64,000 nt of DNA from NCBI RefSeq assembly GCF_050589645.1, contig NZ_JBNGOQ010000003.1, forward strand, positions 392,277-456,276, read 5' to 3'. Shown here piece by piece: positions 29,357 to 53,353 of the stretch. Position 1 is the stretch's first letter; the number at the start of each line of letters is the position of its first letter. This DNA is from Eudoraea algarum. Lineage in GTDB: Bacteria > Bacteroidota > Bacteroidia > Flavobacteriales > Flavobacteriaceae. The notes below the pieces were generated by a model. The model was not told the origin of the DNA, ran no database searches, and saw only the letters and a list, made by a program, of their open reading frames with translations. A program made the translations under genes and the position numbers.

Positions 29357-29430
29357 TGACCTCGACAGGATTCAAACCTGTAACCTTCTGAGCCGTAATC
29401 AGATGCGCTATTCAGTTGCGCCACGAGGCC
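29357..29430 (-). tRNA. tRNA-Arg (anticodon ACG)
   Basis: 74-nt cloverleaf folded by hand: acceptor GGCCTCG/CGAGGTC, D-stem GCGC/GCGC, anticodon stem TCTGA/TCAGA with loop TTACGGC, T-stem ACAGG/CCTGT with T-loop TTTGAAT; CCA not encoded. Confidence 0.85.
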
Positions 29431-37712: not shown

Positions 37713-38939
37713 GTGGGCTTTTTTTATGGATTGCCCTATTTTTGCCCCAAACTGCATAAGATGGGTTCGTCCAATAGTAAAAGATATGATTTAAGAGGGG
37801 TTTCGGCCTCCAAAGAAGAGGTGCACAAGGCCATAGAAAATATTGATAAGGGTCTTTTTCCAAAAGCCTTTTGTAAAGTGGTGCCTGATTATCTCACCAA
37901 CGATGATGCTTACTGTCTGATTATGCATGCCGATGGTGCCGGAACCAAATCTTCCTTGGCCTATATGTATTGGAAGGAAACCGGGGATATTTCGGTTTGG
38001 AAGGGCATCGCCCAGGATGCCCTGATCATGAATGTGGACGATCTGCTCTGCGTGGGGGCCACAGATCACATCATGTTGTCCTCCACCATTGGTCGAAATA
38101 AAAATTTGATACCCGGAGCGGTCATAGCAGCCATAATACAAGGTACCGAAGAGCTCATTTCGGATTTGTCCGCTCACGGCATTACCATACACTCCACAGG
38201 TGGGGAGACGGCAGATGTGGGCGATCTGGTACGTACCATCATCGTAGATTCAACGGTTACTGCACGCATCAAAAGGGCCGATGTCATAGACAATGCCAAC
38301 ATACAGGCGGGCGATGTGATCGTTGGTCTTGCTTCCTTTGGCCAGGCCTCTTATGAAAAGGAGTACAACGGCGGGATGGGCAGTAACGGACTCACTTCTG
38401 CCCGGCACGACGTGTTTGCCAAGTACTTGGCGAAAAAATACCCCGAAAGTTATGATGCCGCGGTGCCCGAGGCCCTGGTTTATTCAGGAAACAAGAAATT
38501 GACAGACAAAGTACCCGAAGCTCCCCTTGATGCAGGTAAATTGGTGCTATCGCCCACAAGGACCTACGCTCCGATCATTAAAAAGATCCTTTCGGAATAC
38601 ACGGCAGAAACCATTCACGGAATGATACATTGCAGTGGTGGCGCTCAGACCAAAATCCTCCATTTTATAGACCAATTGCATATCATTAAGGACAATATGT
38701 TCCCGATGCCTCCGCTGTTTCGTTTAATACAGGAGCAATCTGGTACCGAATGGAAGGAAATGTACCAGGTTTTTAACTGCGGTCACCGGATGGAATTATA
38801 TGTAAACGAGGCCATTGCGGAAGATTTGATCGCTATCTCGGAAAGTTTTGGTGTGGCCGCCAAAGTAGTGGGCAAAGTGGTACAAAATCCACACAAAAAG
38901 CTCACGATACAAAGTGAATATGGCACCTTTGTATATTAA
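37713..38939 (+). CDS. AIR synthase-related (PurM-like) protein of unknown function; alternative start at 37761
   Basis: PurM-like N- and C-terminal domains (DALIMNVDDLLCVGA...). Confidence 0.55.
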   Translation: MGFFYGLPYFCPKLHKMGSSNSKRYDLRGVSASKEEVHKAIENIDKGLFPKAFCKVVPDYLTNDDAYCLIMHADGAGTKSSLAYMYWKETGDISVWKGIAQDALIMNVDDLLCVGATDHIMLSSTIGRNKNLIPGAVIAAIIQGTEELISDLSAHGITIHSTGGETADVGDLVRTIIVDSTVTARIKRADVIDNANIQAGDVIVGLASFGQASYEKEYNGGMGSNGLTSARHDVFAKYLAKKYPESYDAAVPEALVYSGNKKLTDKVPEAPLDAGKLVLSPTRTYAPIIKKILSEYTAETIHGMIHCSGGAQTKILHFIDQLHIIKDNMFPMPPLFRLIQEQSGTEWKEMYQVFNCGHRMELYVNEAIAEDLIAISESFGVAAKVVGKVVQNPHKKLTIQSEYGTFVY

Positions 38940-38993
38940 GGTATACGAATCCCCCAATTCCTACGTTGTTTTAATAATTAAGCCCCTTATGCT

Positions 38994-39437
38994 ATGGAAA
39001 GAAAAACGTTTTTAAAAAACTTGGGCGCGGGAGCGGCTTTTGCCGTAGTTTTCCCTTGCCTTCACGGATGCTCCAGCAGTGGAAGCGATGATGTGGCACC
39101 GGAAGATATGAAACCTATACCCACCGGAGTTGATTTTACGATCGATTTGAACACCTCCGAAGGCGCTGGACTGCAGAACAACGGCGATTTTATTCTGAAG
39201 GACTTTGTGGTGGTCGTTAAGAACTTAGAGGGTCAGTTTGTAGCGGCCAGTCAGGTTTGCAGCCATCAACAGACCGAAGAGGTGCGTTTTCTTGAGGAAA
39301 ACGGTGGTATTTACCGATGCTCTACCCATGGTGCCCGCTTTGATCAGCAAGGAGCTCCGTTGAACAGTGTAACTCCCAATCCGCTGAAAATCTTCAATAC
39401 TGAATTGAACGGTACTATTTTACGTGTTTTTGAATAG
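38994..39437 (+). CDS. Rieske [2Fe-2S] domain lipoprotein, probably Tat-exported
   Basis: CSHQQ...CSTHGARF Rieske boxes; N-terminal RKTFLKNLGAGAAFAVV Tat-like motif; lipobox LHGCSS. Confidence 0.65.
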   Translation: MERKTFLKNLGAGAAFAVVFPCLHGCSSSGSDDVAPEDMKPIPTGVDFTIDLNTSEGAGLQNNGDFILKDFVVVVKNLEGQFVAASQVCSHQQTEEVRFLEENGGIYRCSTHGARFDQQGAPLNSVTPNPLKIFNTELNGTILRVFE

Positions 39438-39472
39438 ACACATCCCAATAAAAGTACTTATAACCTACTCAT

Positions 39473-39907
39473 ATGAAACATAGTATTCTAATTACCGCCC
39501 TTTTGTTTTCGTGCTGTCTTTTGGGACAGGACTGGAAAGGAAACTACGCCGAGGCACTTTTGGCTTCAAAGCAAGAGAGCAAGCCCTTGGTGCTGGTCTT
39601 TTCAGGTTCGGATTGGTGTGGCCCGTGCAAACGACTTGATCGGAATATTTGGCAATCGGAAGCCTTTAAGGCCTACGCCTCGCAGCACTATATTCTCTAC
39701 AATGCAGATTTTCCAAGAAAGAAAACGAACAAACTGCCTGAAGAGAAGATAAATGCCAACAAACAACTGGCCGAGCGTTATAACCCAAAGGGACATTTCC
39801 CCTTGGTTCTGGTCCTCAACGGTCAGGAAGAGGTCTTGGGCAAGACCGGATATGAAAAAGTCTCACCAGACGCCTATTTATCTCTTCTAAATTCCTTTAT
39901 AAAGTGA
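39473..39907 (+). CDS. Secreted thioredoxin-family protein (CGPC active site)
   Basis: Signal peptide; SGSDWCGPCKRL. Confidence 0.6.
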   Translation: MKHSILITALLFSCCLLGQDWKGNYAEALLASKQESKPLVLVFSGSDWCGPCKRLDRNIWQSEAFKAYASQHYILYNADFPRKKTNKLPEEKINANKQLAERYNPKGHFPLVLVLNGQEEVLGKTGYEKVSPDAYLSLLNSFIK

Positions 39908-40896
39908 GATTGAACCTTTCCCTATGCTTTTTTTTTCTTGCCCTTATATGTTTTGGTCAAGAAAATTATGTTACCGTTCATCGGAGCATGAAGCTGATGG
40001 GAAGCAGGTTCGAGATTACAGTGGTAGCGCCCAATGAGGAAATTGGCTATATCAACATCGAAGAGGCCGCCGCGGAAATCACCCGCATAGAAAAAATGAT
40101 ATCTTCTTGGGATGCGGAATCCGAAACTTCCGCAATCAACAAAAATGCCGGTATAAAACCGGTAAAGGTAAGTATGGAACTCTTCAAGCTCATTGAACGT
40201 TCCAAACAAATTTCGGAAATTACCGATGGTGCTTTTGATATATCCTATGCCTCTATGGACAATGTTTGGAAGTTCGATGGGACCATGAAATACCCGCCAA
40301 CGGAGACCGAGATCAAAAGATCCATCGCCAAGATAGGGCATAAAAAAATTATCCTCGATGCAGATGAACATACGGTCTTTCTGAGGCAAAAAGGCATGAA
40401 AATAGGTTTTGGGGCCATTGGGAAAGGGTATGCGGCCGATAGGGCCAAACAACTTTTGGTTTCCAAAAAGGTACGGGCAGGAATTATCAATGCTTCCGGA
40501 GATCTTACCACATGGGGCACCAAGGCCAGTGGGGAAAAGTGGCTTATCGGTATTGCCAATCCCTTGAGCAAGGATAAGATATTTTCGTGGCTCCCCGTCG
40601 TGGAATCCTCGGTGGCCACCTCCGGGAACTATGAAAAATACGTGACCTTTAGGGGACAGAAATATTCGCATATCATCGACCCCAGGACAGGCTATCCCTC
40701 AAAAGGAATCAACAGCGTTTCCATTTTTTCCAAAAGCGCGGAACTATGTGATGCCCTGGCCACTTCGGTATTTATCATGGGAAGGGATGCAGGTATGGCC
40801 CTTATCAATCAGCTTAGGGGTACCGAAGTGATTATCGTGGACAGCGCAAATAAAATTCATAAAAGCAATGGTATCCTGTTCGATAATAATCAGTAA
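39904..40896 (+). CDS. apbE: FAD:protein FMN transferase (ApbE family)
   Basis: ApbE-like sequence throughout (..GFGAIGKGYAADRA..; ..ATSGNYEKY..); overlaps the thioredoxin gene by 4 nt. Confidence 0.75.
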   Translation: MRLNLSLCFFFLALICFGQENYVTVHRSMKLMGSRFEITVVAPNEEIGYINIEEAAAEITRIEKMISSWDAESETSAINKNAGIKPVKVSMELFKLIERSKQISEITDGAFDISYASMDNVWKFDGTMKYPPTETEIKRSIAKIGHKKIILDADEHTVFLRQKGMKIGFGAIGKGYAADRAKQLLVSKKVRAGIINASGDLTTWGTKASGEKWLIGIANPLSKDKIFSWLPVVESSVATSGNYEKYVTFRGQKYSHIIDPRTGYPSKGINSVSIFSKSAELCDALATSVFIMGRDAGMALINQLRGTEVIIVDSANKIHKSNGILFDNNQ

Positions 40897-41116
40897 TTTT
40901 AAAAGGATGAAGAAATTGGTATTGCTATTGGTCCTTGCCGTTTTTTGCACCTCCTGCGTTGTGGTCAAAGAATACGAGAAGGTGTATATTAACGATGACG
41001 AGATGTTGCTTTCCGCCAAAGGCACAGAACGATTTGAAACCAATTTTCAAATCTACCGGGAAGCGGCTTCGGGAGCCAATGGAGGAAAAACAGGGGGTGG
41101 TTGTGGCTGTAATTAA
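40868..41116 (+). CDS. DUF4266-like small lipoprotein (C-terminal GGGCGCN)
   Basis: Lipobox VFCTSC; conserved C-terminal GGC motif; overlaps apbE by 29 nt. Confidence 0.5.
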   Translation: MVSCSIIISNFKRMKKLVLLLVLAVFCTSCVVVKEYEKVYINDDEMLLSAKGTERFETNFQIYREAASGANGGKTGGGCGCN

Positions 41117-42404
41117 GCACGTAAAAGGGAAATTACCCCTGGGCGTCCTGCTGTTCATTTCTTACCTGGGTTTCTCTCAGGCGGGCCAGCAGACCTATAC
41201 CACTAGGGTCTTGGAAGCTGCGGAAATTGATCTGTTGTTCAGCTATTATGATCAGGACGGGCAGAATGCGGCCGTAACCGGGGGAGAAGGTACCGAAGAA
41301 CTTACGGATGCAACCTCGAGCATCGTTGTAAAAATACCCATGAATGCAAATGACGTGCTTACCGTAGATGTGGGCATATCTGCCTATACCTCGGCCTCAT
41401 CAAGCAATGTAAACCCACTGGATGGCAATGCCAACGACCCAGTAAGTCCGTTCATCGCCTCTTCGGGGGCATCCAGGAAGGATCAACTGGCCTATTTTAA
41501 ACCTTCGTATCAGCACAGTTCTTCTGACCGCAACACCTTGTGGACAGCCAACGCCTACGTCTCCAACGAATATGACTACTTCTCCATAGGTTTTGGTGCG
41601 GGGTATACGCGCTTGTTCAATGAAAGAAACACCGAGCTCGGGATAAGTGCCCAAGTATATCTGGACAAATGGAATTCGCAGTATCCGATAGAGTTAAGGG
41701 GTGTTTTTTTTGATGACCGAATTACCGGCAATGGAACGTATAATCCACAATTCACTGAATTTCAGGATGAAACACGTAATTCCTACAGCATATCCCTTAG
41801 TTTTTCCCAAATTTTGGGGAAACGGTGGCAGGGTGCTTTGTTTGCGGATATTGTATCCCAGAACGGTTTGTTGAGCACGCCCTTTCAACGGGTTTATTTT
41901 GGTGATGTGGAAGATTTCTTTATAGACGACTTCCAGTTGGCGGATGATGTGGAACGTCTTCCCGATAGCCGCTTTAAGTTGCCCATTGGGGGCCGATTGA
42001 ACTATTATTTGAACGATGTAGTGGTCCTACGGGGGTATTACAGATATTATATGGACAATTGGGGGATACACGGGCATACCGCCAGTTTGGAAGCACCCAT
42101 AAAATTAAGTGATAAGTTTACACTGTACCCCAGTTATCGGTATTATACGCAGACCGCTGCCGATTACTTCTTCAGTAAGGAAGGGGCTGTATCCACCCTG
42201 GAATTTTATACCTCGGACTACGACCTGTCTGCCTACGATGCCAATCAATACGGTATGGGTATCCGATACAAGGATATTTTTGCCAACACCAAACTTTTCT
42301 CTTTTGGGCTCAAAACTATCGATCTTCGAGTAAACCAATACGACCGTAGCGATGGGCTAAGTGCTTTTATTGTTACCCTGGGCACTACTTTTGTAGGAAA
42401 TTAA
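41079..42404 (+). CDS. DUF3570-like protein (predicted outer-membrane beta-barrel). The ORF-track start at 40935 overlaps the DUF4266 gene out of frame; the likely start is 41079.
   Basis: Signal-like LPLGVLLFISYLGFSQA; alternating beta-strand pattern; C-terminal aromatic residue. Confidence 0.5.
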   Translation: MEEKQGVVVAVIKHVKGKLPLGVLLFISYLGFSQAGQQTYTTRVLEAAEIDLLFSYYDQDGQNAAVTGGEGTEELTDATSSIVVKIPMNANDVLTVDVGISAYTSASSSNVNPLDGNANDPVSPFIASSGASRKDQLAYFKPSYQHSSSDRNTLWTANAYVSNEYDYFSIGFGAGYTRLFNERNTELGISAQVYLDKWNSQYPIELRGVFFDDRITGNGTYNPQFTEFQDETRNSYSISLSFSQILGKRWQGALFADIVSQNGLLSTPFQRVYFGDVEDFFIDDFQLADDVERLPDSRFKLPIGGRLNYYLNDVVVLRGYYRYYMDNWGIHGHTASLEAPIKLSDKFTLYPSYRYYTQTAADYFFSKEGAVSTLEFYTSDYDLSAYDANQYGMGIRYKDIFANTKLFSFGLKTIDLRVNQYDRSDGLSAFIVTLGTTFVGN

Positions 42405-42520
42405 CATCTTCCCGACCCCGTAAGATCGGACGCACAAAACCAAGGGTTTTTCTTAGGCGGTTCGGATCTGCTTGAAGCTATAAAAAAATCGTAAATTCGC
42501 AATCCAAGTGTAGATCGCAT

Positions 42521-43597
42521 ATGTTAGATAAATTAAACATTGTAAAACAACGTTTCGATGAGGTGTCGGACCTCATTATCCAACCCGATATCATATCGGA
42601 CCAGAAACGCTATGTACAGTTGAACAAGGAATATAAGGATCTCAAGGTCCTTGTGGACAAACGTACACAATACGTGGAGCTGACGGATAATATTAGCGAG
42701 GCAGAGGAAATAATTTCGGACGGAAGCGATGCCGAGATGTTGGAAATGGCCAAAATGCAGTTGGAAGAGGCCAAAGCGGCCTTACCCGTTCTGGAAGAGG
42801 AAATAAAATTTTTACTGATTCCCAAAGATCCTGAGGACGCCAAGAACGTGGTGGTAGAGATACGCGCGGGCACAGGGGGAGACGAGGCCAGTATTTTTGC
42901 CGGCGATCTGTTCCGCATGTATACCAAATATTGTGAGTCCAAAGGATGGAAAACGAATGTGATCGATCTTAGCGAGGGTACCAGTGGTGGATTTAAGGAA
43001 ATACAATTCGAGGTAAGCGGAGAGGACGTGTACGGTACCTTAAAATTTGAGGCCGGAGTACATCGGGTGCAGCGCGTACCACAGACTGAGACACAGGGTA
43101 GGGTACATACCAGCGCAGCAACGGTCATGGTGCTTCCGGAAGCCGAAGATTTTGACGTGCAGATAGATCCCAAGGATGTGCGGATAGATTTTTTCTGTTC
43201 CTCAGGTCCTGGCGGGCAGTCGGTAAACACGACCTATTCAGCGGTACGTCTTACCCATGTCCCCACAGGTTTGGTAGCGCAGTGCCAAGACCAAAAGTCG
43301 CAACATAAAAATAAGGAAAAGGCCTTTAAGGTATTGCGATCGCGGCTCTATGATCAGGAACTGGCAAAAAAACAGGAAGAGGATGCCGCCAAACGAAACT
43401 CCCAAGTAAGCAGTGGCGATCGTTCGGCAAAAATTAGAACCTACAACTACCCACAGGGCAGGGTTACGGACCATCGAATAGGACTTACCCTTTATGATCT
43501 GACCAACATTGTTAACGGGGATATTCAAAAGATTATCGATGAGCTGATGCTTGTAGAAAATACCGAAAAACTAAAGGAGGCCTCGGAAATTTTTTGA
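42521..43597 (+). CDS. prfA: Peptide chain release factor 1
   Basis: GGQ motif ([11 protein letters not shown]) and RF1-type PQT tripeptide region ([18 protein letters not shown]). Confidence 0.85.
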
Positions 43598-43626
43598 TGA
43601 CTCAGACCACTTAGCAGGAAGACAAA

Positions 43627-44448
43627 ATGACCACCCAGTTTTTAACAGCACAGATCCGGAAAAAAAAGTCCTTTCTCTGTATTGGTTTGGATACCGACCT
43701 GGACAAGGTGCCGGAACACCTCTTGGACGAAGAGGATCCCCTATTTGCTTTTAACAAAGCCATTATCGACGCCACACATGAGCTGTGTGTTGCCTATAAG
43801 CCCAATATTGCCTTTTACGAGGCTTACGGACTTAAGGGCTGGAAGGCCCTGGAGAAGACCATGGCCTATTTGAATACAAACCATCCCGGAATATTTACCA
43901 TTGCCGACGCCAAACGCGGGGACATTGGCAATACATCCACAAGGTATGCCCAGGCTTTTTTTGGGAATCTGGATTTTGATGCCTTGACCATCGCGCCCTA
44001 TATGGGCAAGGACTCCGTGGAGCCATTTTTGGCCTTTGAAGATAAGCATACCATTCTCTTGGCATTGACGTCCAATGTCGGAGCTTTTGATTTTCAAACA
44101 AAAAATAGCAACGGTAGGGAGCTGTACAAGGAAGTTCTGGAGACCTCCAAGACCTATAGCCATGCCGAACGCCTTATGTACGTGGTAGGTGCAACCAAGG
44201 CATCCTATTTGTCCGAGATTAGGCAAATTGTACCCGAAAGCTTTTTATTGGTGCCGGGTATTGGGGCACAAGGGGGAAGTCTAAAGGAAGTATGTCATTT
44301 TGGTATGACCGAGGATGTAGGACTGCTGATCAACTCTTCGCGTGCTATCATCTACGCCTCCAAAGGAATGGATTTCGCAGAGGCCGCGGCAGAAAAAGCC
44401 CGGGAGGTGCAAAAAGAAATGGCGACAGAGCTGGGGCGGCTAGCTTGA
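43627..44448 (+). CDS. pyrF: Orotidine 5'-phosphate decarboxylase (type 2)
   Basis: LCIGLDTDL...[11 protein letters not shown] motifs. Confidence 0.8.
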
Positions 44449-44451
44449 TGT

Positions 44452-44718
44452 CTACACCAAACTTTCCAGGACTTTCTTGATTTTTTGTGCCTTTTGTTCA
44501 AAGAATTCACCCAACTGGGTATCCGTATATTTAATGCTTGATGCCTTCTCCATAAAACTTTGATATTGGTATTCCAAAAGGGTTATGGCGTGTGCCCCGG
44601 AAGTTATCGGTGTAACGGTTCCTACTCTACAATACTGCTTTTCCATAGTCAAAAACTTTGTTCTTACAAATATACGACCGTATCGGGGTTTTAGATGTTG
44701 GTGTAAGGGTGTATTCAC
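44452..44718 (-). CDS. Hypothetical small protein
   Basis: ORF only. Confidence 0.2.
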   Translation of the reverse strand: MNTPLHQHLKPRYGRIFVRTKFLTMEKQYCRVGTVTPITSGAHAITLLEYQYQSFMEKASSIKYTDTQLGEFFEQKAQKIKKVLESLV

Positions 44719-44976
44719 CTAAAAACCAGGTGTTTTATCTAATTTTTAACAAAAAGACAAAGAAATTGGCAACCGCTTTGGAAGATATTCCACTGCCGTC
44801 CGGTGCGATTCGGTATAACAATATCCTCTATTCCTGTCCGAAATCTGGTCCCAAGTGTTTTCAAAACCACACCCCATTGGGCATGTTCAAGTTCCTTTTC
44901 AGGGATAATTATTTAACAAAAGTGTCTCGGTAGTAGTGTTCAAAATCAGTATCTTACCTATACAAAAACACTTGGA

Positions 44977-45486
44977 ATGATGAAAAAATACGTAAGCCTT
45001 TCACTTTTTCTTTTTTTTGGATTTTTAGTACATGCGCAAAGCGATGCATGCGCCTGTTGTACCGAAGATCATACCGCCTTTGACTTTTGGGTAGGGGATT
45101 GGGAGGTCACCAAGACCGACGGTTCCGCAGCCGGAAAGAATACCATTGAAAAAATAGAGGGTAGTTGTGTGCTAAGGGAGAATTGGACCAGCGCCAATGG
45201 GAACTATACCGGTACCAGCTATAACTTTTTTAATCTTAGTACCAAACAATGGGAGCAATTGTGGATAGACAATGCTGGGAATCATCTAAAATTAAAAGGG
45301 AATAGGATAGATAACCATATGATACTTTCATCGGACGAGTTTACCCACACGGATGGGAAGGTCTACAAGAACAGAATTACCTGGACGTTGAACGAGGATG
45401 GTAGCGTGCGGCAACTTTGGGAAGTCCTTCAGGGCAATGAAGTAGCGAGTGTTGCTTTTGATGGCTTGTATAGAAAAAAAGGATAG
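44977..45486 (+). CDS. Secreted hypothetical protein
   Basis: Signal peptide MMKKYVSLSLFLFFGFLVHAQ. Confidence 0.4.
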   Translation: MMKKYVSLSLFLFFGFLVHAQSDACACCTEDHTAFDFWVGDWEVTKTDGSAAGKNTIEKIEGSCVLRENWTSANGNYTGTSYNFFNLSTKQWEQLWIDNAGNHLKLKGNRIDNHMILSSDEFTHTDGKVYKNRITWTLNEDGSVRQLWEVLQGNEVASVAFDGLYRKKG

Positions 45487-45505
45487 CCCAACGATTATGG
45501 ATCAG

Positions 45506-45711
45506 TGAATGTAAATTGCAGCTCCGAATGACTTTGATAGCTAATTCAAATAATTACTCTAAAAAATGAGACAGAAGTTTTTTTAGAACATGTTCCGGAG
45601 CTGCTTTACATTTATTAGGTTACTTATCTCAAAGTAACATACTCTTTGCATACGTTGGGGAAAGGCTTATCAAGATTTACCGTTCCGATAAAAGTTTACG
45701 TTACGTTTACC
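45506..45711. repeat. Copy A of a ~210-bp repeat family (internal IR GTAAATTGCAGCTCC...GGAGCTGCTTTACATTT; conserved CAAAGTAACA and TTCCGATAAAAGTTTACGTT blocks), abutting the left edge of the GC-rich SusCD block
   Basis: About 75-80% identity to copy C over about 200 bp, same orientation. Confidence 0.65.
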
Positions 45712-45790
45712 AAAAACCTTCCGTTTGTCGAGAATTTTGGAGGTTAAGCGCCGTTACTCCGCTATACATGGACTTTTCAAGCGATGCAAA

Positions 45791-46480
45791 TCACGACGCT
45801 TTGAAATAGAAATCGAGCAGTTTTACCAGGTCCTCCCTTTTGTAGGGGTCCAGTTTCTGTTTTTTGATGTGCTTTTCCATTTCCCCGGCCCGTTCCCCGA
45901 ACAGGGGCACCAGGTTCTTCCGCTTGCGGGGCAGTTCCACCACCTCGCCCTCGGGGCCCAGCCCCTGGAGGTAGAAACGGGCGCCCTCGCGCTTGAACTT
46001 GGCGGGCACGTCCTGTTCGTAGCTGCTCTTGGCGGGCTTCTTGGGCACGAACTTGATGTTCTCCTTGAAATAGAGCGTGTAGCCCTCGCCGCGGTGCAGC
46101 CTTTCGAAGAAGGTGGTCTGCAGTTTTCCGCGCTCGTCCCTGTAGGGCCTGGTCTCGAACCAGCGGCCGGAGCCGTCCAACAGGGCTATGCGGTAGGGGG
46201 TGGAGCGGTCCAGTCCCATGACCTCGCCGTTCTCCCTCTTGATCTCGATGCTGTTCTCCACCACGTTGAAGCGCAGCAGCTGTACCTTTTCCATGCCGTT
46301 TATGCGGGCCGACACGAACTCCTCCAGGAGGTAGCGCGAGCCCTCGGCCTCGTCGTAGATCGGGTTGTTGGTGCCCACGAAGAAGGCGAGCTCGTTGAAG
46401 GTCTCGTTGTTGGGCCGCTGTATCTGCCCCTGGGCCGAAAGGCCTGCAAGGCACAGGGCAAGGAGGATCGTTCTTTTCAT
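45791..46480 (-). CDS. Secreted hypothetical protein (K/E-rich), last gene of the GC-rich SusC-SusD operon
   Basis: Signal peptide MKRTILLALCLAGLSAQ; the longer overlapping ORFs on both strands are high-GC artefacts. Confidence 0.45.
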   Translation of the reverse strand: MKRTILLALCLAGLSAQGQIQRPNNETFNELAFFVGTNNPIYDEAEGSRYLLEEFVSARINGMEKVQLLRFNVVENSIEIKRENGEVMGLDRSTPYRIALLDGSGRWFETRPYRDERGKLQTTFFERLHRGEGYTLYFKENIKFVPKKPAKSSYEQDVPAKFKREGARFYLQGLGPEGEVVELPRKRKNLVPLFGERAGEMEKHIKKQKLDPYKREDLVKLLDFYFKAS

Positions 46481-46565
46481 ATCTAGATCGGTTTAGGGTT
46501 AAAATATAGGGACCACCAAAAACCGTGCCTTGGTGGTCCCATTCCTATATCAGTTCCGCTAGCTC

Positions 46566-47996
46566 CTAGAAGGTTCCGGGATTCTGCGTGATGTTCGGAT
46601 TGTTGGTGGTCTCATCGTCCACGATGGGGAAGATCACCTTGTCCGCACCGGGTGCCGACTCGGGACCGCCACCTGGGCGAAGGTTCAGGCCGTTCCTCAA
46701 GAGGTCCATCCTACGGTGGCCCTCGAAACAGAGTTCCTTCCTTCTTTCCAGACTGATGGCGTCAAGGTCCAGATTGCCCGCGGTAAGGTCGGCAAGGCCG
46801 GCCCTGCTACGCAGCGTGTTGATGTCGGCCAGGGGCGTGGCGCCCACAGAGGTGCCTGCCCTAAAATTGGCCTCGGCCCTGTTCAGGTACATCTCCGTGA
46901 CCCTTACCCCCATACCATCGGAGGCATTGTCCACCACATCGTTGTACTTGGTGGTGAAGAAGGTATTGTTGCCCCCTGCATCGGTGGCCGCTACGGACAG
47001 TTCGTCGAACCTTCTGTCCCCGGGCTCTGCATTAAAGGCATCGATCAGGTCCTGGCTAAAGGGCGCATCGCCCCGTCCTCCGGGGGAGGCGTTGTAAAAG
47101 TTCACGTACACCTCGTCGGAACCCGGTACCGATTCGTCCTGGGGACCGTCGGTCGGGGTATTGATCACCACGAACAGGTGCTCCGAGGAGGTTTCCGCGT
47201 TGTTATAGAAATCGTAGTTGGCCGCCAAGGGGTGGTTGCCCGCCGCGATCACCTGGTTGGCCAGATCGGCCGCCCCGGCCCAGTTCTCCCTGTAGAGGTA
47301 CAACCTGGACAAAAGACCCTGGGCAGAAGCCTGCTCGGCCCGCTCGCCGTTGTCCACCGGAAGGTCCGCTATGGCGTCCAAAAGGTCCTGCTCTATAAAA
47401 GCGTGCACCTCGTTCACCGTGGAACGCTCCAATTGGAACTCGGATATCTCGCCCCCTTCGAAGGGCTGCGAAACGATCGGTACCCCAAGGTTGGTGCCCC
47501 CGCTGAACTGGTAGGGCTGTGCAAAGAGGTTCACCAATTGGAAATAAGTGTACGCACGTAGGAACTTGGCCTCGGCTACGAATACGGCTTTTGTGGCCTC
47601 ATCCAGCCCGTTGATCTCCGCCGGATCTACGGGCGGAAGGTTCACGATTACATTGTTGGCGGCCCCGATCAGTTCATAGGCATCCAACCAGATGTTGTCT
47701 ATCGTCGTATTGGTGGCCAGGGTCTCGAACTGGTCCACTTCCTGGAGTGAAGGGAAACTTCCCACGAAATTCACGTTGTCCGACATGAAGTCCGACATCA
47801 GCTGCGGATTCCCGTTCAGGTCACCGCTCTGGTTCTTACTGTAGACCCCGACGACGGCACCGTTGATCGTGGCAAAGGTGCTGAAGATTGTACTGGAGGC
47901 CACATTGTTCTCCGCAACCACGTCCAATCGGTCCTCGCACGAAACGATCATGAGAAGTCCAAAGAGTGCTGCTATTGCTTTATTTGTTTTTTTCAT
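46566..47996 (-). CDS. susD: RagB/SusD family nutrient-uptake outer-membrane lipoprotein
   Basis: Lipobox MIVSCED; SusD-like length and TPR-like N-terminal region; directly downstream of susC. Confidence 0.8.
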   Translation of the reverse strand: MKKTNKAIAALFGLLMIVSCEDRLDVVAENNVASSTIFSTFATINGAVVGVYSKNQSGDLNGNPQLMSDFMSDNVNFVGSFPSLQEVDQFETLATNTTIDNIWLDAYELIGAANNVIVNLPPVDPAEINGLDEATKAVFVAEAKFLRAYTYFQLVNLFAQPYQFSGGTNLGVPIVSQPFEGGEISEFQLERSTVNEVHAFIEQDLLDAIADLPVDNGERAEQASAQGLLSRLYLYRENWAGAADLANQVIAAGNHPLAANYDFYNNAETSSEHLFVVINTPTDGPQDESVPGSDEVYVNFYNASPGGRGDAPFSQDLIDAFNAEPGDRRFDELSVAATDAGGNNTFFTTKYNDVVDNASDGMGVRVTEMYLNRAEANFRAGTSVGATPLADINTLRSRAGLADLTAGNLDLDAISLERRKELCFEGHRRMDLLRNGLNLRPGGGPESAPGADKVIFPIVDDETTNNPNITQNPGTF

Positions 47997-48010
47997 TGCT
48001 CTATTTTTTA

Positions 48011-51000
48011 TTAAAATGTTAAACGTGCCCCGAACGAATAGGACTTGGCCTGTGGTGCGGTAAAGAATGTTTCTCCTTGGAACAAGGGATCGATATCATC
48101 GGTCACCTCGGGGTCTATCCCGTCCAGTTCGTCCCCTTTAATGGTGAATAGGTTGGTTGCCGTGGCATAGAGCCTAAGCCCGGTAATGAAACCGCCAAGT
48201 CTTTCCAGGGCCTTCTCGGGAAGGTTGTACCCCAGGGTGATGTTCTTGATCCTCAGATAGGAGCCGTCCAACTGCTGCTGGGTAGAACGCTGGTTGAACA
48301 AGTTAAAGGTAGAACTGTTTGGGCTTGGCAAAAAGGCGTTGTCGCCCGGCTGCCTCCAGATGTTCAGGTTCTGCCTCCTGATGTTCACTATGCCCCCGAT
48401 GGCGTCGTTACCGTCGGCAAAACGAAGGCCGTCAATTACTATTTCATTACCATAGGAGTAGTTCATCAGTACGGACAGGTCAAAGTCCTTGTACTTGAAG
48501 GTATTGGTCATACCCCCTGAGAAATCGGGAAGCGGGCTTCCCGTGACCACACGGTCTCCCGAGCCTGGATTAGTGGTAATGTTTCCATTGGCATCCAACC
48601 ATTCGGCGTCCCCGGTCTGGGAGTTGATGCCCACGTAACGGATCAGGTAGAAGTTGTTCAGGGATTCCCCTTCGATGGCCCTTTGAATGGCCCCGTCGAT
48701 GATCCTCCTGCCCTGTGGGTCCGTCGCGGCGTCCTCGTTGAGACGGAGCACCTTATTCTCTATCGTGGTCAGGTTGAAGTTGGTACGCCACTCGAAGTTC
48801 TCGGAGCGTACGTTAACCGTGCTCAGTTCAAACTCCCAACCTTTGTTCTCCATCTCGCCGATGTTCCTGCTGATCGAGGTAAAACCGGTCTGTGGTGGCA
48901 ATATCTGGTTCAGCAAAAGGTCGCTGGTGGTCTTCTTGAAGTACGAGGCGTTGAAATTGATGCGCCCGTTCAAAAAGGTCGATTTGATACCGATGTCCAG
49001 CGTCTCACTTTCCTCCCATTTGATGTCCGCATTTTCAGGTTGGTTGGGTACGGCCCCGGATTCCCCGTTGTAGTCCCCGAAACCTCCGATACTGAAGAGC
49101 CCGAGCGATGGGAAGGTCCCCAAGCGGTCGTTACCCACCGTACCGATACTGGCCCGGACGGAGAGATAGTCAATAAAGTCGATGTCCTGGACAAAGGGTT
49201 CCTCGGAGATTACCCAGCCCGCGGCCGCGGACCAGAAGTACCCGAAACGCACATCTGGCTGGAAACGGGAGGACCCGTCACGTCTTATGGATCCCTCCAC
49301 AAGGTACTTGCCCTTGTAGTCATAGGATACCCTGGAAAAGAGCCCGAAAAGGCGGGTCGGGAAACGGTCCCCGTTCAATACGGTGGCCGTAGCCCCTGCG
49401 CCGAGGTTCCTAAGGACATCGTCCAAAAATCCGGTCGCGGAAACGTTCAATCTGGACCTGAGGGTCTCCTCATAGTTCAGTCCGAGAAGAACCGATAGGT
49501 TGTGGTCCTCACCATAGGTGTCGGAGTAGTTTATCGTCTGGTTGGTAAGATATCTTTCCTCCCTTACGCTCACTACCTGTGCCGATCCACCGGGCGTGTT
49601 GAAGTCCGCATTTCTAAGTGTTTCTTCAAGGTCGAGCCTGTCGATACCGAACTCGGAACGCCAGGTAAGCCCCTCGATAGGGGTGATCTCGGTATAGGCG
49701 TTCCCGATTACACGAAAGGTCTTCAGCTCGTCCGTGTTCAGGGCCACCCTCGCAAAGATGTTCGGGATAAAGGAGCCCGACTGCGCGAAGTTGCCCTCGT
49801 CGTCAAAGGCCGCTACCACCGGGCTCTGAAGGAAGGCTGTTGTGAAGGGTGCGTTGATACTGTTCTCCACACTTACCCTGTTGAGGCGGTTGTTGGTGAC
49901 CCCCAGGTTCATCCCGACCTTCAGCCATTCCTGGACGTCCGAATCGATGTTGATCCGCGCCCCGGCCCGTTGCTGGTCGTTGCCGATGATAAAGCCTTGG
50001 GTGTCCTGGTAGTCCATACCAAAGAAGAAGCTGGTCTTCTCGCCACCGCCCCTTACGCCAAGGTTGTAGTTTTGTGATACGCCCGTGCGCTGTACCCCGC
50101 CGAGCCAGTCCGTCCCCCCGGAACCGATGGCGCCAAGGCCAAGGGATTCTGGTGTTACCGTGGTGCCGCCGTTCTGTATGGTGGCCACTTCCGACTTGAA
50201 CTGTCGGAACTCGTCCGCGGTCAGGATGTCCGGAACGTCGGTAGACTGCGAGTACTGTGTGCTCACGTCAAAGGTCACCTGGGCGGCGGAGTTCCTGCGG
50301 CCCTTCTTGGTGGTGATCAGGATTACCCCGTTGGCGCCCCTGGACCCGTAGATCGAGGTCGCACCGGCATCCTTAAGTACGGTGAGCGACTGGATGTCGT
50401 TCGGGTTCACGTAGGAGAGCGGGTTGATCCCGGTGTTCCCCCCACGGTTGAGCGTGTTGCCCGCGGTATCGGTGATGGGCACCCCATCGATCACGATAAG
50501 GGGCTGGCTACCCGCGTTGATCGAGTTTACGCCCCGTACACGTATAACGGCGGCAGAACCGAGAACACCCGAGGCGTTCACGATCTGGGTACCGGCGCTC
50601 TGCCCCTGTAGGAGCTGATCGGCCGAGACCACCTGGAGGTTCTCAATGGCCTCCTCTTTTACGATACCGATGTTCTGGATAATCTTTTTCTCCTCTTGGT
50701 TACCGTAACCAATAACGACCACCTCTTCCAAGGCCTCCGCATCTTCCTGCATCGTTACATTGATGACATCCGAAGCGCCTACAGTGCGCTCAACGGTTGT
50801 TTGTCCTAAATAGGAATAAACAAGAACATCCCCTGAGCTTGCCTGGATAGCATAGTTGCCATCAAAATCAGTTTGTGTTCCCGTGGAAGTTCCTTTTACC
50901 ACAATGTTCACCCCAGGTAAGGGTAAGCCTCCTTCATCCGTAACGGTACCGGAAACTGTTTTTTCTTGTGCATATGCCATAGACATCCCAAATAGGAATA

Positions 51001-51031
51001 GCATACACAGCCAAATACATTTTTTTTTCAT
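48011..51031 (-). CDS. susC: SusC/RagA family TonB-dependent outer-membrane receptor
   Basis: N-terminal carboxypeptidase-regulatory-like domain, plug (TonB box region), NYNLGVRGGGEKTSFFFGMDYQDTQGFI SusC signature, C-terminal ...ARLTF. Confidence 0.85.
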   Translation of the reverse strand: MKKKCIWLCMLFLFGMSMAYAQEKTVSGTVTDEGGLPLPGVNIVVKGTSTGTQTDFDGNYAIQASSGDVLVYSYLGQTTVERTVGASDVINVTMQEDAEALEEVVVIGYGNQEEKKIIQNIGIVKEEAIENLQVVSADQLLQGQSAGTQIVNASGVLGSAAVIRVRGVNSINAGSQPLIVIDGVPITDTAGNTLNRGGNTGINPLSYVNPNDIQSLTVLKDAGATSIYGSRGANGVILITTKKGRRNSAAQVTFDVSTQYSQSTDVPDILTADEFRQFKSEVATIQNGGTTVTPESLGLGAIGSGGTDWLGGVQRTGVSQNYNLGVRGGGEKTSFFFGMDYQDTQGFIIGNDQQRAGARINIDSDVQEWLKVGMNLGVTNNRLNRVSVENSINAPFTTAFLQSPVVAAFDDEGNFAQSGSFIPNIFARVALNTDELKTFRVIGNAYTEITPIEGLTWRSEFGIDRLDLEETLRNADFNTPGGSAQVVSVREERYLTNQTINYSDTYGEDHNLSVLLGLNYEETLRSRLNVSATGFLDDVLRNLGAGATATVLNGDRFPTRLFGLFSRVSYDYKGKYLVEGSIRRDGSSRFQPDVRFGYFWSAAAGWVISEEPFVQDIDFIDYLSVRASIGTVGNDRLGTFPSLGLFSIGGFGDYNGESGAVPNQPENADIKWEESETLDIGIKSTFLNGRINFNASYFKKTTSDLLLNQILPPQTGFTSISRNIGEMENKGWEFELSTVNVRSENFEWRTNFNLTTIENKVLRLNEDAATDPQGRRIIDGAIQRAIEGESLNNFYLIRYVGINSQTGDAEWLDANGNITTNPGSGDRVVTGSPLPDFSGGMTNTFKYKDFDLSVLMNYSYGNEIVIDGLRFADGNDAIGGIVNIRRQNLNIWRQPGDNAFLPSPNSSTFNLFNQRSTQQQLDGSYLRIKNITLGYNLPEKALERLGGFITGLRLYATATNLFTIKGDELDGIDPEVTDDIDPLFQGETFFTAPQAKSYSFGARLTF

Positions 51032-51066
51032 ACTTTAAGTTTTAATTAAGTTAGTCTCGTACGTCT

Positions 51067-51300
51067 TGAATTAAACTGTAAGCGTAGGCCCATAGGACTT
51101 AAAGCCAGGGAAACCTACCGTTCCCAAAAAAGTGAGAATTAAGAGTGCTGTTTCTAAATTTTGGAAGTAAGTGTCTCAGAGCTACTTTACATTTAATTAG
51201 TCATACGGCCCAAAGTAACATGCTCTTTGCCTGTTTTAAGGAAAGTCTTATAAACGTTTACTTTTCCGATGAAAGTTTACGCTTTTTTTACGCCTACCGT
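51067..51300. repeat. Copy B (degenerate) of the ~210-bp repeat family, in the susC upstream region
   Basis: Shares the ..GAGCTACTTTACATTTAATTAG..CAAAGTAACATGCTCTTTGC..TTCCGATGAAAGTTTACGC.. blocks with copies A and C. Confidence 0.55.
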
Positions 51301-51616
51301 CCATTTACTGAGAATAATTCAATGATGAGTGCAGTTAGGTCAATTTGGGTATTCGCTTCTTCCGCCTTATTCATTCATCTAAAAAAGGATATCCTCCAAA
51401 GCCATAATCCCAATTTGGTTCCAGATATTTTCAAAACGGCAAGGCGCTGAAGTAAATCCTACGGCATAAGATATTTGCGGACATCCTATTTATAGGCCGG
51501 GCACGGGGGTCGGGCACCTAATAAAAAACGAAGAGCCAAGGTCTACCGCAAACAATATCGGTTTTTTGGATAATACTAATGGTAAAGGGAAAATTGCCTG
51601 TATTGGCGGGTATTTC

Positions 51617-51824
51617 TGAATGTAAATTGCAGCCCTGAATTATATTGATGACTAATTCAATTAATTACTCTAAAAATGAGAATGAAGTATTTTTTAGGAG
51701 TAAGTTTTTCAGGGCTGCTTTACATTTAGTTAGTTATAAAACCAAAGTAATACGCTCTGGATAATATTTGGGAAGAACTTATAAACCTTTACTTTTTCCG
51801 ATAAAAGTTTACGTTGAGCTTACG
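51617..51824. repeat. Copy C of the ~210-bp repeat family; its 3' end overlaps the stop region of the AraC-type gene
   Basis: TGAATGTAAATTGCAGCCC...GGGCTGCTTTACATTTAG...TTCCGATAAAAGTTTACGTT. Confidence 0.65.
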
Positions 51825-53353
51825 CTGGTCTTTAGGCTATTTCGTAGCGTTTTTTTTTGATACTCGGTGGGTGTAAGGTCGGTATCTTTTTTAAAGGCCT
51901 TGTTGAAGGTAACTTTGTTGTTATAGCCCACTTCATAAGCGATATCAATGATATTCAGATTTTTGAGATAGTCAGTATCCAGAATTTGTTTGGCTTCATG
52001 GATCCGGTAACTATTGATCAATTCATGAAAGTTCATTTTAAAATGCTCGTTGATCACTTGGGAGGTATTGTGTCTGGTGGTATTTAACCTTTCGGCCAGG
52101 ATTTCCAGACTTATGTCGTTCTCCTTGTAAACCTTGTGCTCATCGAACAACTTCACTAAGTTCGACTTGAGTTCCTCGGACAGGCTTTCTGTTAGACCCG
52201 AATTTTTGTACTTAAAGAAAAGCTGGTCGTTAAGGGCATACAGGCCATTGAATACATTGGGCTGCACGTTTGCCGAATAGCCCACATACAATACCATTAG
52301 AGTCATACTGATAATTTGTAGATTGAGCAGGATGCCCGAGTTGATGTTGTAGTTTACAAAAAAGAAATAAAAGGCGTAGGTAAAGATGTACATAAAATGT
52401 ATCCTATAGATATTTTTTTGCCAGAGTTTGTTGTTCTTGCTCAACTCCTTGGTCTTGCTGCTTTCCAGATATAGCTTTCGGATAAAATAACCATACCCGA
52501 TCAGTGATATTAGTTTTGTGGACGAGATGATGAGCAAGTTGTAATTCCCATAGGCCTCTTCAACAGCTACATTGCCCAATATGACGTCTAGTTTATCAGG
52601 CGCGGACAAGGCATATACCGGAAGGAGATAGGTCAAAAGCAGTACGGTGGGGACAAGGTGGAGCAAGTCCTTGGGCTTAAATTGGTACTGCCGTGTTATT
52701 CGTTTATAATAGAAATACAACAAGGGCCCGAACAATAGGGCAAACGGTGAAGACATAAGATGGGTATGCGGAAACTGAAACTGATAATTGGTCGCAAAAA
52801 AGAACCAATGGAGGATAAAAATGGAATGGACCAAAATAAACCCACTGATCAACACCCGGGCCAATTTGTCGATGTTCTTGTTTAGATTAAGGACTATGGT
52901 AATGTAAAAGCCAATTAGGGCTATATATAATAGGATAAAGGACCAGACATTGATATTGGTCGTATATTTTTCCTCCAAAGTGGCGAATTCGTCCGTATGT
53001 TTTATGGAATCAAAACCCTCGTTTAGGAAAAGTGCAGTGTTGAACTCCTCAAAAAGATACTTTTCCAAAAAAACTACTGATTTCTCGGTGTTTTCGAGTC
53101 CGGCATACCCCAAGGCAATTTTTTTGTACAGCTGGGATTTTTCAATCTTCCCTTCCTCCAACAACTGAAGGTATATCTTAAGTGCTTCGGAATAATTTTG
53201 TTTTTGGTACAATTCATCGGCCCTGGTCAGCAGGTCTTGGGTAATATCATAAAAGTGCGGCAAACGACTCTCAGCGACGCTTGGGTACGACAGCGCGCTG
53301 GTTGGGAAGCTTAACAGTAAGAACAATCCGAAAACAATTCTTAAGCGTCTCAT
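51809..53353 (-). CDS. Membrane-bound AraC-type sensor regulator (signal peptide, periplasmic TPR-like region, about 7 TM helices, C-terminal AraC HTH). The ORF extends to 53530, but the likely start is 53353.
   Basis: MRRLRIVFGLFLLLSFPTSALS signal peptide; C-terminal HTH (ILAERLNTTRHNTSQVINEHF...). The terminator hairpin at 53553-53580 lies inside the longer ORF. Confidence 0.6.
   Translation of the reverse strand: MRRLRIVFGLFLLLSFPTSALSYPSVAESRLPHFYDITQDLLTRADELYQKQNYSEALKIYLQLLEEGKIEKSQLYKKIALGYAGLENTEKSVVFLEKYLFEEFNTALFLNEGFDSIKHTDEFATLEEKYTTNINVWSFILLYIALIGFYITIVLNLNKNIDKLARVLISGFILVHSIFILHWFFFATNYQFQFPHTHLMSSPFALLFGPLLYFYYKRITRQYQFKPKDLLHLVPTVLLLTYLLPVYALSAPDKLDVILGNVAVEEAYGNYNLLIISSTKLISLIGYGYFIRKLYLESSKTKELSKNNKLWQKNIYRIHFMYIFTYAFYFFFVNYNINSGILLNLQIISMTLMVLYVGYSANVQPNVFNGLYALNDQLFFKYKNSGLTESLSEELKSNLVKLFDEHKVYKENDISLEILAERLNTTRHNTSQVINEHFKMNFHELINSYRIHEAKQILDTDYLKNLNIIDIAYEVGYNNKVTFNKAFKKDTDLTPTEYQKKTLRNSLKTSVSST

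Follow-up and report, generated by a model that had tools for sequence, protein, structure and literature searches.

Does a sharp rise in G+C (GC) content over a SusC/SusD gene pair mark the arrival of new genes, or the arrival of a new allele of genes that were there before? The question is raised by a 64,000-nucleotide (nt) stretch of the Eudoraea algarum genome (contig NZ_JBNGOQ010000003.1, positions 392,277 to 456,276; the whole stretch is called the window below), in which three co-oriented genes, encoding a SusC-type transporter (susC), a SusD-type lipoprotein (susD) and a secreted protein of 229 residues (hyp229), stand out from both flanks. The initial annotation of the window described them as a polysaccharide-utilisation cassette, recently inserted from a high-GC Bacteroidota donor and bordered by two copies of a repeat. 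Its observation of a GC jump holds; the borders that it placed at the repeats do not. The explanation that we favour, with moderate confidence, is the in-place replacement of a resident segment by an orthologous copy from a higher-GC relative, via homologous recombination.

The compositional signal is strong. Windows of 500 nt at 45,750-50,750 contain 50-61% GC, against 35-47% in the DNA on both sides, and long spurious open reading frames (ORFs) occupy the other frames of the GC-rich region, as the initial annotation had remarked. The GC fraction is 0.599 in hyp229, 0.575 in susD and 0.546 in susC, compared with 0.468, 0.484 and 0.401 in the neighbouring genes prfA, pyrF and AraC. At third codon positions the GC fraction (GC3) reaches 0.70 in susC, 0.74 in susD and 0.86 in hyp229, corresponding to z values of 4.1 to 7.6 relative to a backbone of 26 ORFs at 23.6-64 kb (mean 0.506, standard deviation 0.046, range 0.40-0.59). 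The tract that is proposed to have been replaced is ~4.86 kb long (45791..50654, minus strand) and comprises susC codons 126-1006, susD and hyp229; its pooled GC3 is 0.756 over 1,589 codons, against 0.514 over the 9,516 codons of the backbone. The three genes are thus foreign to their surroundings in composition, as had been claimed for them.

The upstream border lies within a gene. A maximum-likelihood GC3 change point places it at susC codon 126 (position 50,654, 2-log-likelihood-unit interval 50,633-50,765), 377 nt downstream of the susC ATG and ~505 nt away from repeat copy B, and not within a few base pairs of that repeat. The log-likelihood ratio of this change point is 24.7, whereas 300 shuffles topped out at 8.0. 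The step is seen directly in the gene: GC3 is a host-like 0.42 in codons 1-125 and 0.73 in codons 126-1006, and 25-codon blocks range from 0.28 to 0.56 through codon 125 and then rise to ~0.84. A comparable GC3 step is found in none of 12 orthologous susC genes. The downstream border coincides with the 3' end of hyp229 or falls slightly short of it, 78-170 nt from repeat copy A, with GC3 declining to 0.6-0.7 across the final ~30 hyp229 codons (45,791-45,880).

The surroundings of the tract are shared widely. The gene order MCM-purU-DUF4197-PfkB-AraC-susC-susD-hyp229-hyp169-pyrF-prfA, or a close variant of it, is found in at least 14 loci of other lineages. These include Saonia (L003), the P01 bin, a metagenome-assembled genome (L008), uncultured isolates (L002, L010, L086, L088), Maribacter (L004, L007, L009), Leptobacterium (L013), Robiginitalea (L090) and metagenome contigs (L091, L092, L099). 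In each syntenic relative the GC3 of the operon stays within ~0.05 of that of its flanks, whatever the general level: susC has a GC3 of 0.415 in Saonia (flanks 0.41-0.45), 0.27 in L002 (flanks 0.24-0.34) and 0.78 in L092, a 57%-GC Flavobacteriaceae contig (flanks 0.71-0.76). SusC homologues with 75-84% identity occur in Saonia, Maribacter, Croceitalea, Eudoraea, Flagellimonas, Muriicola, Leptobacterium and Robiginitalea. All matches in this range are Flavobacteriaceae orthologues, the close relatives are same-site, and the next tier drops to ~55%, with no sign of the Hymenobacter- or Rhodothermaeota-like donor initially expected. The AraC-susC-susD-hyp229 set is an ancestral operon that has kept its chromosomal position in a large group of marine Flavobacteriaceae, and the window differs from its relatives by allele and not by the presence or absence of genes.

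For SusC 126-1006 and SusD, the affinities also differ from those of the flanks. In trees of prfA and pyrF the window joins Saonia and the P01 bin with 91% bootstrap support; the same grouping receives 8% for SusC residues 126-1006 and 13% for SusD, whereas the pairing of Saonia with the P01 bin persists (77% and 99%, respectively). The nearest relatives of SusC residues 1-125 are the P01 bin and Saonia, a clade from which residues 126-1006 depart, and SusD is about equidistant from all orthologues (Kimura distance 0.28-0.34). The discordance is visible site by site at positions where Saonia and the P01 bin agree and both differ from M. algarum and 2-612-J. Counted as Saonia state to Maribacter state, the window shows 84:9 over prfA, pyrF, AraC and SusC 1-125 (40:4 for AraC alone), as opposed to 25:22 over SusC 126-1006 (Fisher p = 1.8e-6 against the flanks), 19:14 over SusD, and 44:36 over the last two combined (Fisher p = 1.1e-7).

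The same tract is present in three strains. The window is 99.6% identical to GCA_038077475.1 and GCA_947494825.1, deposited as 'Flavobacteriaceae bacterium 3-367', and the tract is found in frame in all three assemblies, which differ by 0.35-0.4%. Between the window and each public assembly there are 77-88 substitutions per ~23 kb, both within and beyond the tract, at densities of the same order (19 single-nucleotide polymorphisms in the 4,864 nt of the tract, 46 in ~7,400 nt of flank). As three differing assemblies carry the tract with scattered substitutions, the tract did not arise in assembly and is older than the separation of the strains. Its age can only be bracketed, before the split of the three strains (~0.4% apart) and after the split from the Saonia lineage; the recency originally attributed to the acquisition is to be read within that bracket. 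As a separate observation, when window positions 35,794-61,031 are compared with L001, L082 and L084, most substitutions fall in a block at 38,261-48,815, in which the window differs identically from both assemblies, and none separates the window from the assemblies at 48,816-52,789. This clustering suggests a recombination block within the species.

Under the replacement reading, a patch of ~4.9 kb would have been overwritten in the 3-367 lineage by the orthologous segment of a higher-GC relative. One crossover would lie where susC encodes the Plug, a very conserved stretch, around codon 126, and would yield an in-frame chimeric SusC; the other would have taken place at the hyp229 3' terminus or in the conserved element that follows it. 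As the break is inside the gene, the transporter would combine a native N-terminal domain with an imported plug and barrel. The resident sequence ahead of the break would stay native, from the regulator through the promoter region to susC codon 125, and because of this the imported transporter is presumably still controlled by the host. We infer both recombination as the mechanism and the family of the donor. The selective reason might be pressure on surface-exposed proteins.

Codon usage gives an idea of the donor. Both C and G are raised at the third positions of the tract (C3 0.44, G3 0.32), with AAG, GAG and CAG favoured, and two-fold families prefer C-ending codons (AAC 0.83, GAC 0.76, TTC 0.70, ATC 0.73). 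Its codon usage correlates with that of contig L092, which carries the same locus at 57% GC, at r = 0.85, as compared to r = 0.43 with the host backbone. In hyp229, the least constrained of the three genes, the shift extends to the first two codon positions and to the amino-acid composition: GC1 is 0.59 (0.34-0.43 in orthologues), the GARP/FYMINK amino-acid ratio 0.88 (0.26-0.47) and R/(R+K) 0.50 (0.13-0.29). The amino-acid composition of SusC is uninformative as a donor signature (GARP/FYMINK 0.94, against 0.84-1.05 in orthologues), as the protein is too constrained to show a shift. Altogether the composition of the tract looks genome-wide in origin; a higher-GC donor, as the initial annotation also proposed, is its best explanation, and the patch GC3 implies a donor genome of ~55-60% GC. 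As the same synteny is found in GC-rich relatives (L090, L092), homologous flanks are available in nature. Robiginitalea, which combines high GC with the same synteny, was considered as donor and rejected: its SusC is 76-78% identical, hyp229 is absent, and its Arg and Leu codon preferences differ.

Several points weigh against replacement. SusC and hyp229 protein searches against 5.8 billion proteins, a scan of a genome collection with SusC, and metagenome scans with hyp229 and SusD returned no donor, the best non-self matches being 84-85% identical for SusC, at most 77% for SusD and 53% for hyp229. A recent, little-ameliorated import should have a near-identical living source, and the donor lineage must therefore be unsampled. 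Arg codons in the tract are led by AGG (0.37), with CGG at 0.10, whereas the sampled high-GC relatives use CGG at 0.50-0.56. The informative sites of hyp229 stand at 10:3 and 6:2 and its best matches are Saonia-like, despite its having the highest GC3; as hyp229 leans to the Saonia group, a single donor outside the Saonia clade does not fit all three genes. The trees are bootstrapped neighbour-joining trees of short alignments. Finally, a sliding comparison of nucleotide identity with Saonia and the P01 bin shows no clean step at the crossovers, the flanks standing at ~75-80%; divergence from all relatives is close to saturation at the nucleotide level, and the crossover points are for this reason not directly visible. 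The longest shared exact runs likewise do not pick out a junction.

A second case at the same locus may exist in Maribacter sp. 2308TA10-17 (L004). Its flanks join M. algarum and 2-612-J with 100% bootstrap support and 94% protein identity, whereas its SusC and SusD are 83% and 77% identical to theirs, with bootstrap values of 28% and 11%. Along L004 6,900-15,500, nucleotide identity to L007 and L010 drops from ~0.85 to 0.70-0.78 from AraC to hyp229. This strain may thus carry another allele replacement, without a GC signature.

Alternatively, the tract was never imported, and its GC was raised in situ by a hot spot of biased gene conversion or by a local mutational bias. We regard this as rather unlikely, and it stays alive as a rival because of the missing donor, the hyp229 affinity and the use of AGG. 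In its favour, hyp229 keeps its Saonia-group affinity under the strongest GC shift, and AGG-led Arg codons are expected if third positions of an AGA-rich ancestor turned from AT to GC; very large databases without a donor fit as well, and the Maribacter strain hints at a locus prone to recombination. What tells against it is the identity of the substituted states. In SusC 126-1006 and SusD, 36 of 80 informative sites carry the Maribacter state, compared with 9 of 93 in the flanks, and a pressure on composition alone would give states matching neither group rather than matches to the other one. The step is also abrupt and within a single gene, and more than 12 relatives that share the operon and its elements all lack a GC3 excess. 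The shifts in bacterial GC3 reported for biased gene conversion amount to a few points, and not to 25-35. That a process acting on just these 4.9 kb of a surface-exposed uptake operon drove GC3 from ~0.45 to 0.75-0.9 in one species lineage, dragging the amino-acid composition of hyp229 with it, is judged unlikely; one candidate would be strong GC-biased gene conversion in a recombination hot spot delimited by the conserved Plug-coding segment on one side and the downstream regulatory element on the other. If true, this would be a case of bacterial compositional evolution that is local, sharply delimited and unusually strong.

Codon adaptation to very high expression of the transporter operon is a very doubtful source of the high GC3. 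In marine Flavobacteriia, SusC/D pairs commonly rank with the most abundant proteins, and C-ending codons are indeed strongly favoured in two-fold families. The first 125 susC codons, however, are unaffected. G-ending codons (AAG, GAG, CAG and GTG) rise too, which points to composition rather than to tRNA matching, and the strongest shift is found in the accessory gene hyp229, down to its amino-acid composition. In 12 relatives the orthologues have no excess over their flanks, and the 40-kb backbone tops out at a GC3 of 0.59.

An inserted polysaccharide-utilisation cassette from a distant high-GC Bacteroidota, with the repeats as its borders, is highly improbable. Its appeal lies in a real GC jump over exactly three co-oriented genes, flanked by direct repeats. 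It fails because the site is occupied by these three genes, with unchanged neighbours, in many genera: gene content and flanks are conserved together, an outcome that the initial annotation had itself named as counting against its proposal, and all close SusC relatives are same-site Flavobacteriaceae orthologues. Of the marks of a genomic island, the atypical composition is present and an empty site in relatives is not. The upstream border lies within susC, and the repeats are closest to same-position copies elsewhere. A domain scan of neighbouring ORFs returned none related to mobility, and the sole tRNA of the window (29,357-29,430) is 16 kb from the tract. An assembly chimera or contamination, in which reads of a GC-rich relative were joined at conserved segments, is just as improbable. 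The upstream junction does coincide with the best-conserved portion of susC, in which an assembler might change from one template to another, but three assemblies carry the tract in frame with substitutions inside and outside it, on contigs spanning 678-772 kb.

The repeats themselves deserve a description. Three copies were found with nhmmer, and not the two first reported, all oriented as the operon; the full element is ~215 nt long. Copy A is full length (45501..45713, minus strand; E = 3.7e-64) and starts 78 nt downstream of the hyp229 stop. Copy B is partial (51159..51293, minus strand; E = 7.7e-25), corresponding to the first ~135 nt (5') of the element (model positions 4-139), and is located 128 nt upstream of the susC ATG. 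Copy C is full length (51612..51827, minus strand; E = 2.6e-61) and lies directly downstream of the AraC gene. At least seven lineages (L002-L010, L013, L086, L088, L090) have two or three copies per locus, always in operon orientation, upstream of susC and also downstream of the operon. The best match of each window copy is the same-position copy in Saonia or other genera, the identity to Saonia being 83% for A (208 nt), 84% for B and 81% for C (254 nt). As same-position counterparts are the closest, the copies are conserved parts of the locus and not insertion scars, and their reading as island borders is abandoned.

In the direction of the operon, the element comprises three GTAAAC boxes, one of them within the palindrome TAAACGTTTA, a TTACTTTG box and a fold of ~110 nt. 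The TTACTTTG box resembles TAnnTTTG, the -7 promoter motif of Bacteroidetes. The fold is Y-shaped, with an outer stem around two hairpins, and the same shape is predicted in nearly all 21 copies. The RNA part of copy C has a predicted energy of -33.8 kcal/mol (z = -7.8) and that of copy A -30.5 kcal/mol (z = -4.1); 7 of 8 tested copies fold better than shuffled sequence (z -2.8 to -7.8). Standard pairs fill 87% of the pair cells, compared with 35-47% when the partners are slid, and eight pairs change on both sides. Covariation is modest (0.179 against 0.155 in shuffles, a score reached by 12 of 500 shuffles). In the core of the outer stem, G-U cells outnumber A-C cells by ~17:3, which fits an RNA transcribed in the operon sense. 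An Rfam search returned no match for the element at the gathering threshold or at E <= 1. These features make the element a candidate operator and promoter of the SusCD operon, followed by a leader or a small RNA.

The identities initially given to the three operon genes hold up. SusC (48011..51031, minus strand; 1,006 residues) is a SusC/RagA TonB-dependent transporter, encoded by an in-frame chimera whose codons 1-125 (50,657-51,031) look native. It matches TIGR04056 with 804.9 bits (cut-off 368.25) and TIGR04057 with 62.6 bits (cut-off 46.2), as well as the Pfam families Plug, TonB_dep_Rec_b-barrel and CarbopepD_reg_2, and is a member of the SusC/RagA family. The susD gene (46566..47996, minus strand) starts 14 nt past the susC stop. 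Its product, a lipoprotein of 476 residues, has the N terminus MKKTNKAIAALFGLLMIVSC, with a Cys at residue 20, and belongs to the SusD/RagB family with scores over both cut-offs (Pfam SusD-like_3, 84.5 bits; SusD_RagB, 84.7 bits). The third gene, hyp229 (45791..46480, minus strand), occupies the same place in the operon of most relatives. The protein possesses a signal peptide and has no family match; its structure is predicted with confidence (pLDDT 86), and no similar solved structure was found. The susD-hyp229 spacer holds an inverted repeat at 46,509-46,540 (GGGACCACCAA...TTGGTGGTCCC), with perfectly complementary arms of 11 nt, a 10-nt loop and no T run following it; the spacer has 46% GC, against 29% in Saonia.

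On the upstream side, the AraC-family regulator (51809..53353, minus strand; 514 residues from the NCBI start, within an ORF reaching 53,530) adjoins susC in every syntenic locus and is native in composition (GC3 0.52). It possesses an N-terminal hydrophobic segment (signal or transmembrane), a TPR-like stretch, several transmembrane-like stretches and, at the C-terminus, HTH_18 and HTH_AraC; its transmembrane helices and its HTH_18 domain agree with the membrane-bound AraC-type regulator first proposed. On the other side, the locus is bounded by hyp169 (44977..45486, plus strand), a convergent gene for a secreted protein and a native neighbour (GC3 0.465), with orthologues of 55-71% identity at or near the locus in L002, L003, L008, L013, L086, L088, L091 and L099. 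Further along, next to pyrF, a 64-residue ORF (44,452-44,646, minus strand) is called at the same length in every syntenic genome, including that of Robiginitalea, and has no family match. This ORF and the intergenic DNA up to ~44,740 show 83-89% nucleotide identity to Saonia and are among the best-conserved non-housekeeping DNA here.

Of the features of a polysaccharide-utilisation locus (PUL), the adjacent susC/susD pair is present. The neighbours identified within ~10 kb are AraC, a PfkB kinase, DUF4197, purU, MCM, pyrF, prfA, DUF3570 and ApbE; no carbohydrate-active enzyme (glycoside hydrolase, lyase or esterase) was identified among them or in the syntenic loci. As no such enzyme was identified nearby, the polysaccharide-utilisation label is not established. 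The substrate may not be a polysaccharide: SusC is 75-85% conserved across genera, and the operon sits between housekeeping genes, with the PfkB kinase and DUF4197 nearby.

A different part of the window, at 1-23,200, forms a low-GC block (30-36% GC), in which 21 ORFs have a GC3 of 0.21-0.35, against ~0.5 elsewhere in the window. It encodes many alpha/beta hydrolases, a Zn-dependent dehydrogenase, an AraC regulator with an arabinose-binding domain, a TPR-LytTR regulator, DUF1330 and PanE/ApbA. As an acquired accessory island, this block seems a stronger candidate than the susCD tract.

It is common practice to interpret compositional islands as insertions that bring new functions. Here the signal most likely marks an allele swap in a core, positionally conserved operon, which bears on the interpretation of GC-based island callers. 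If the replacement is true, even SusC/D pairs as strongly conserved as these (75-85% across genera) are exchanged across species boundaries, and the discordant Maribacter cassette hints that such exchange recurs. It also bears on selection for the turnover of outer-membrane uptake proteins, for which phage or predator pressure is one candidate.

Compared with genomic islands and laterally acquired PULs, the tract shares the atypical composition over co-oriented genes that include susC and susD. It differs in that the site is occupied in relatives, that no mobility genes or carbohydrate-active enzymes were identified nearby, and that the flanking repeats are conserved, putatively regulatory elements and not att sites. 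The closer parallel is orthologous (xenologous) replacement, or 'replacing' transfer, with which it has in common the unchanged gene order, the foreign allele, the in-frame chimera and the discordance of SusC 126-1006 and SusD with the flanks. This process is already known, and the locus represents no new kind of system; it departs from that pattern in that the searches returned no donor, that the GC3 contrast is unusually large (+0.25 to +0.35) and that hyp229 lacks the discordance.

The rag locus was reportedly first noticed, by Hanley and colleagues in 1999, for its atypical G+C content. The present case differs from it in that the exchange would be between species or genera, that one allele is found in three strains, and that no insertion sequence elements flank the genes; as the host is a free-living marine bacterium, immune selection is not an obvious driver here. 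The likeness would reside in the exchange of alleles in place. The RagAB (SusCD) system of Porphyromonas gingivalis, the closest specific counterpart, occurs as four sequence types, with a mosaic distribution produced by allelic exchange (PMC5266723). In both cases a divergent SusC/SusD-type pair is held at a fixed locus, and the RagAB types move by allelic exchange, off the strain phylogeny (PMC5266723).

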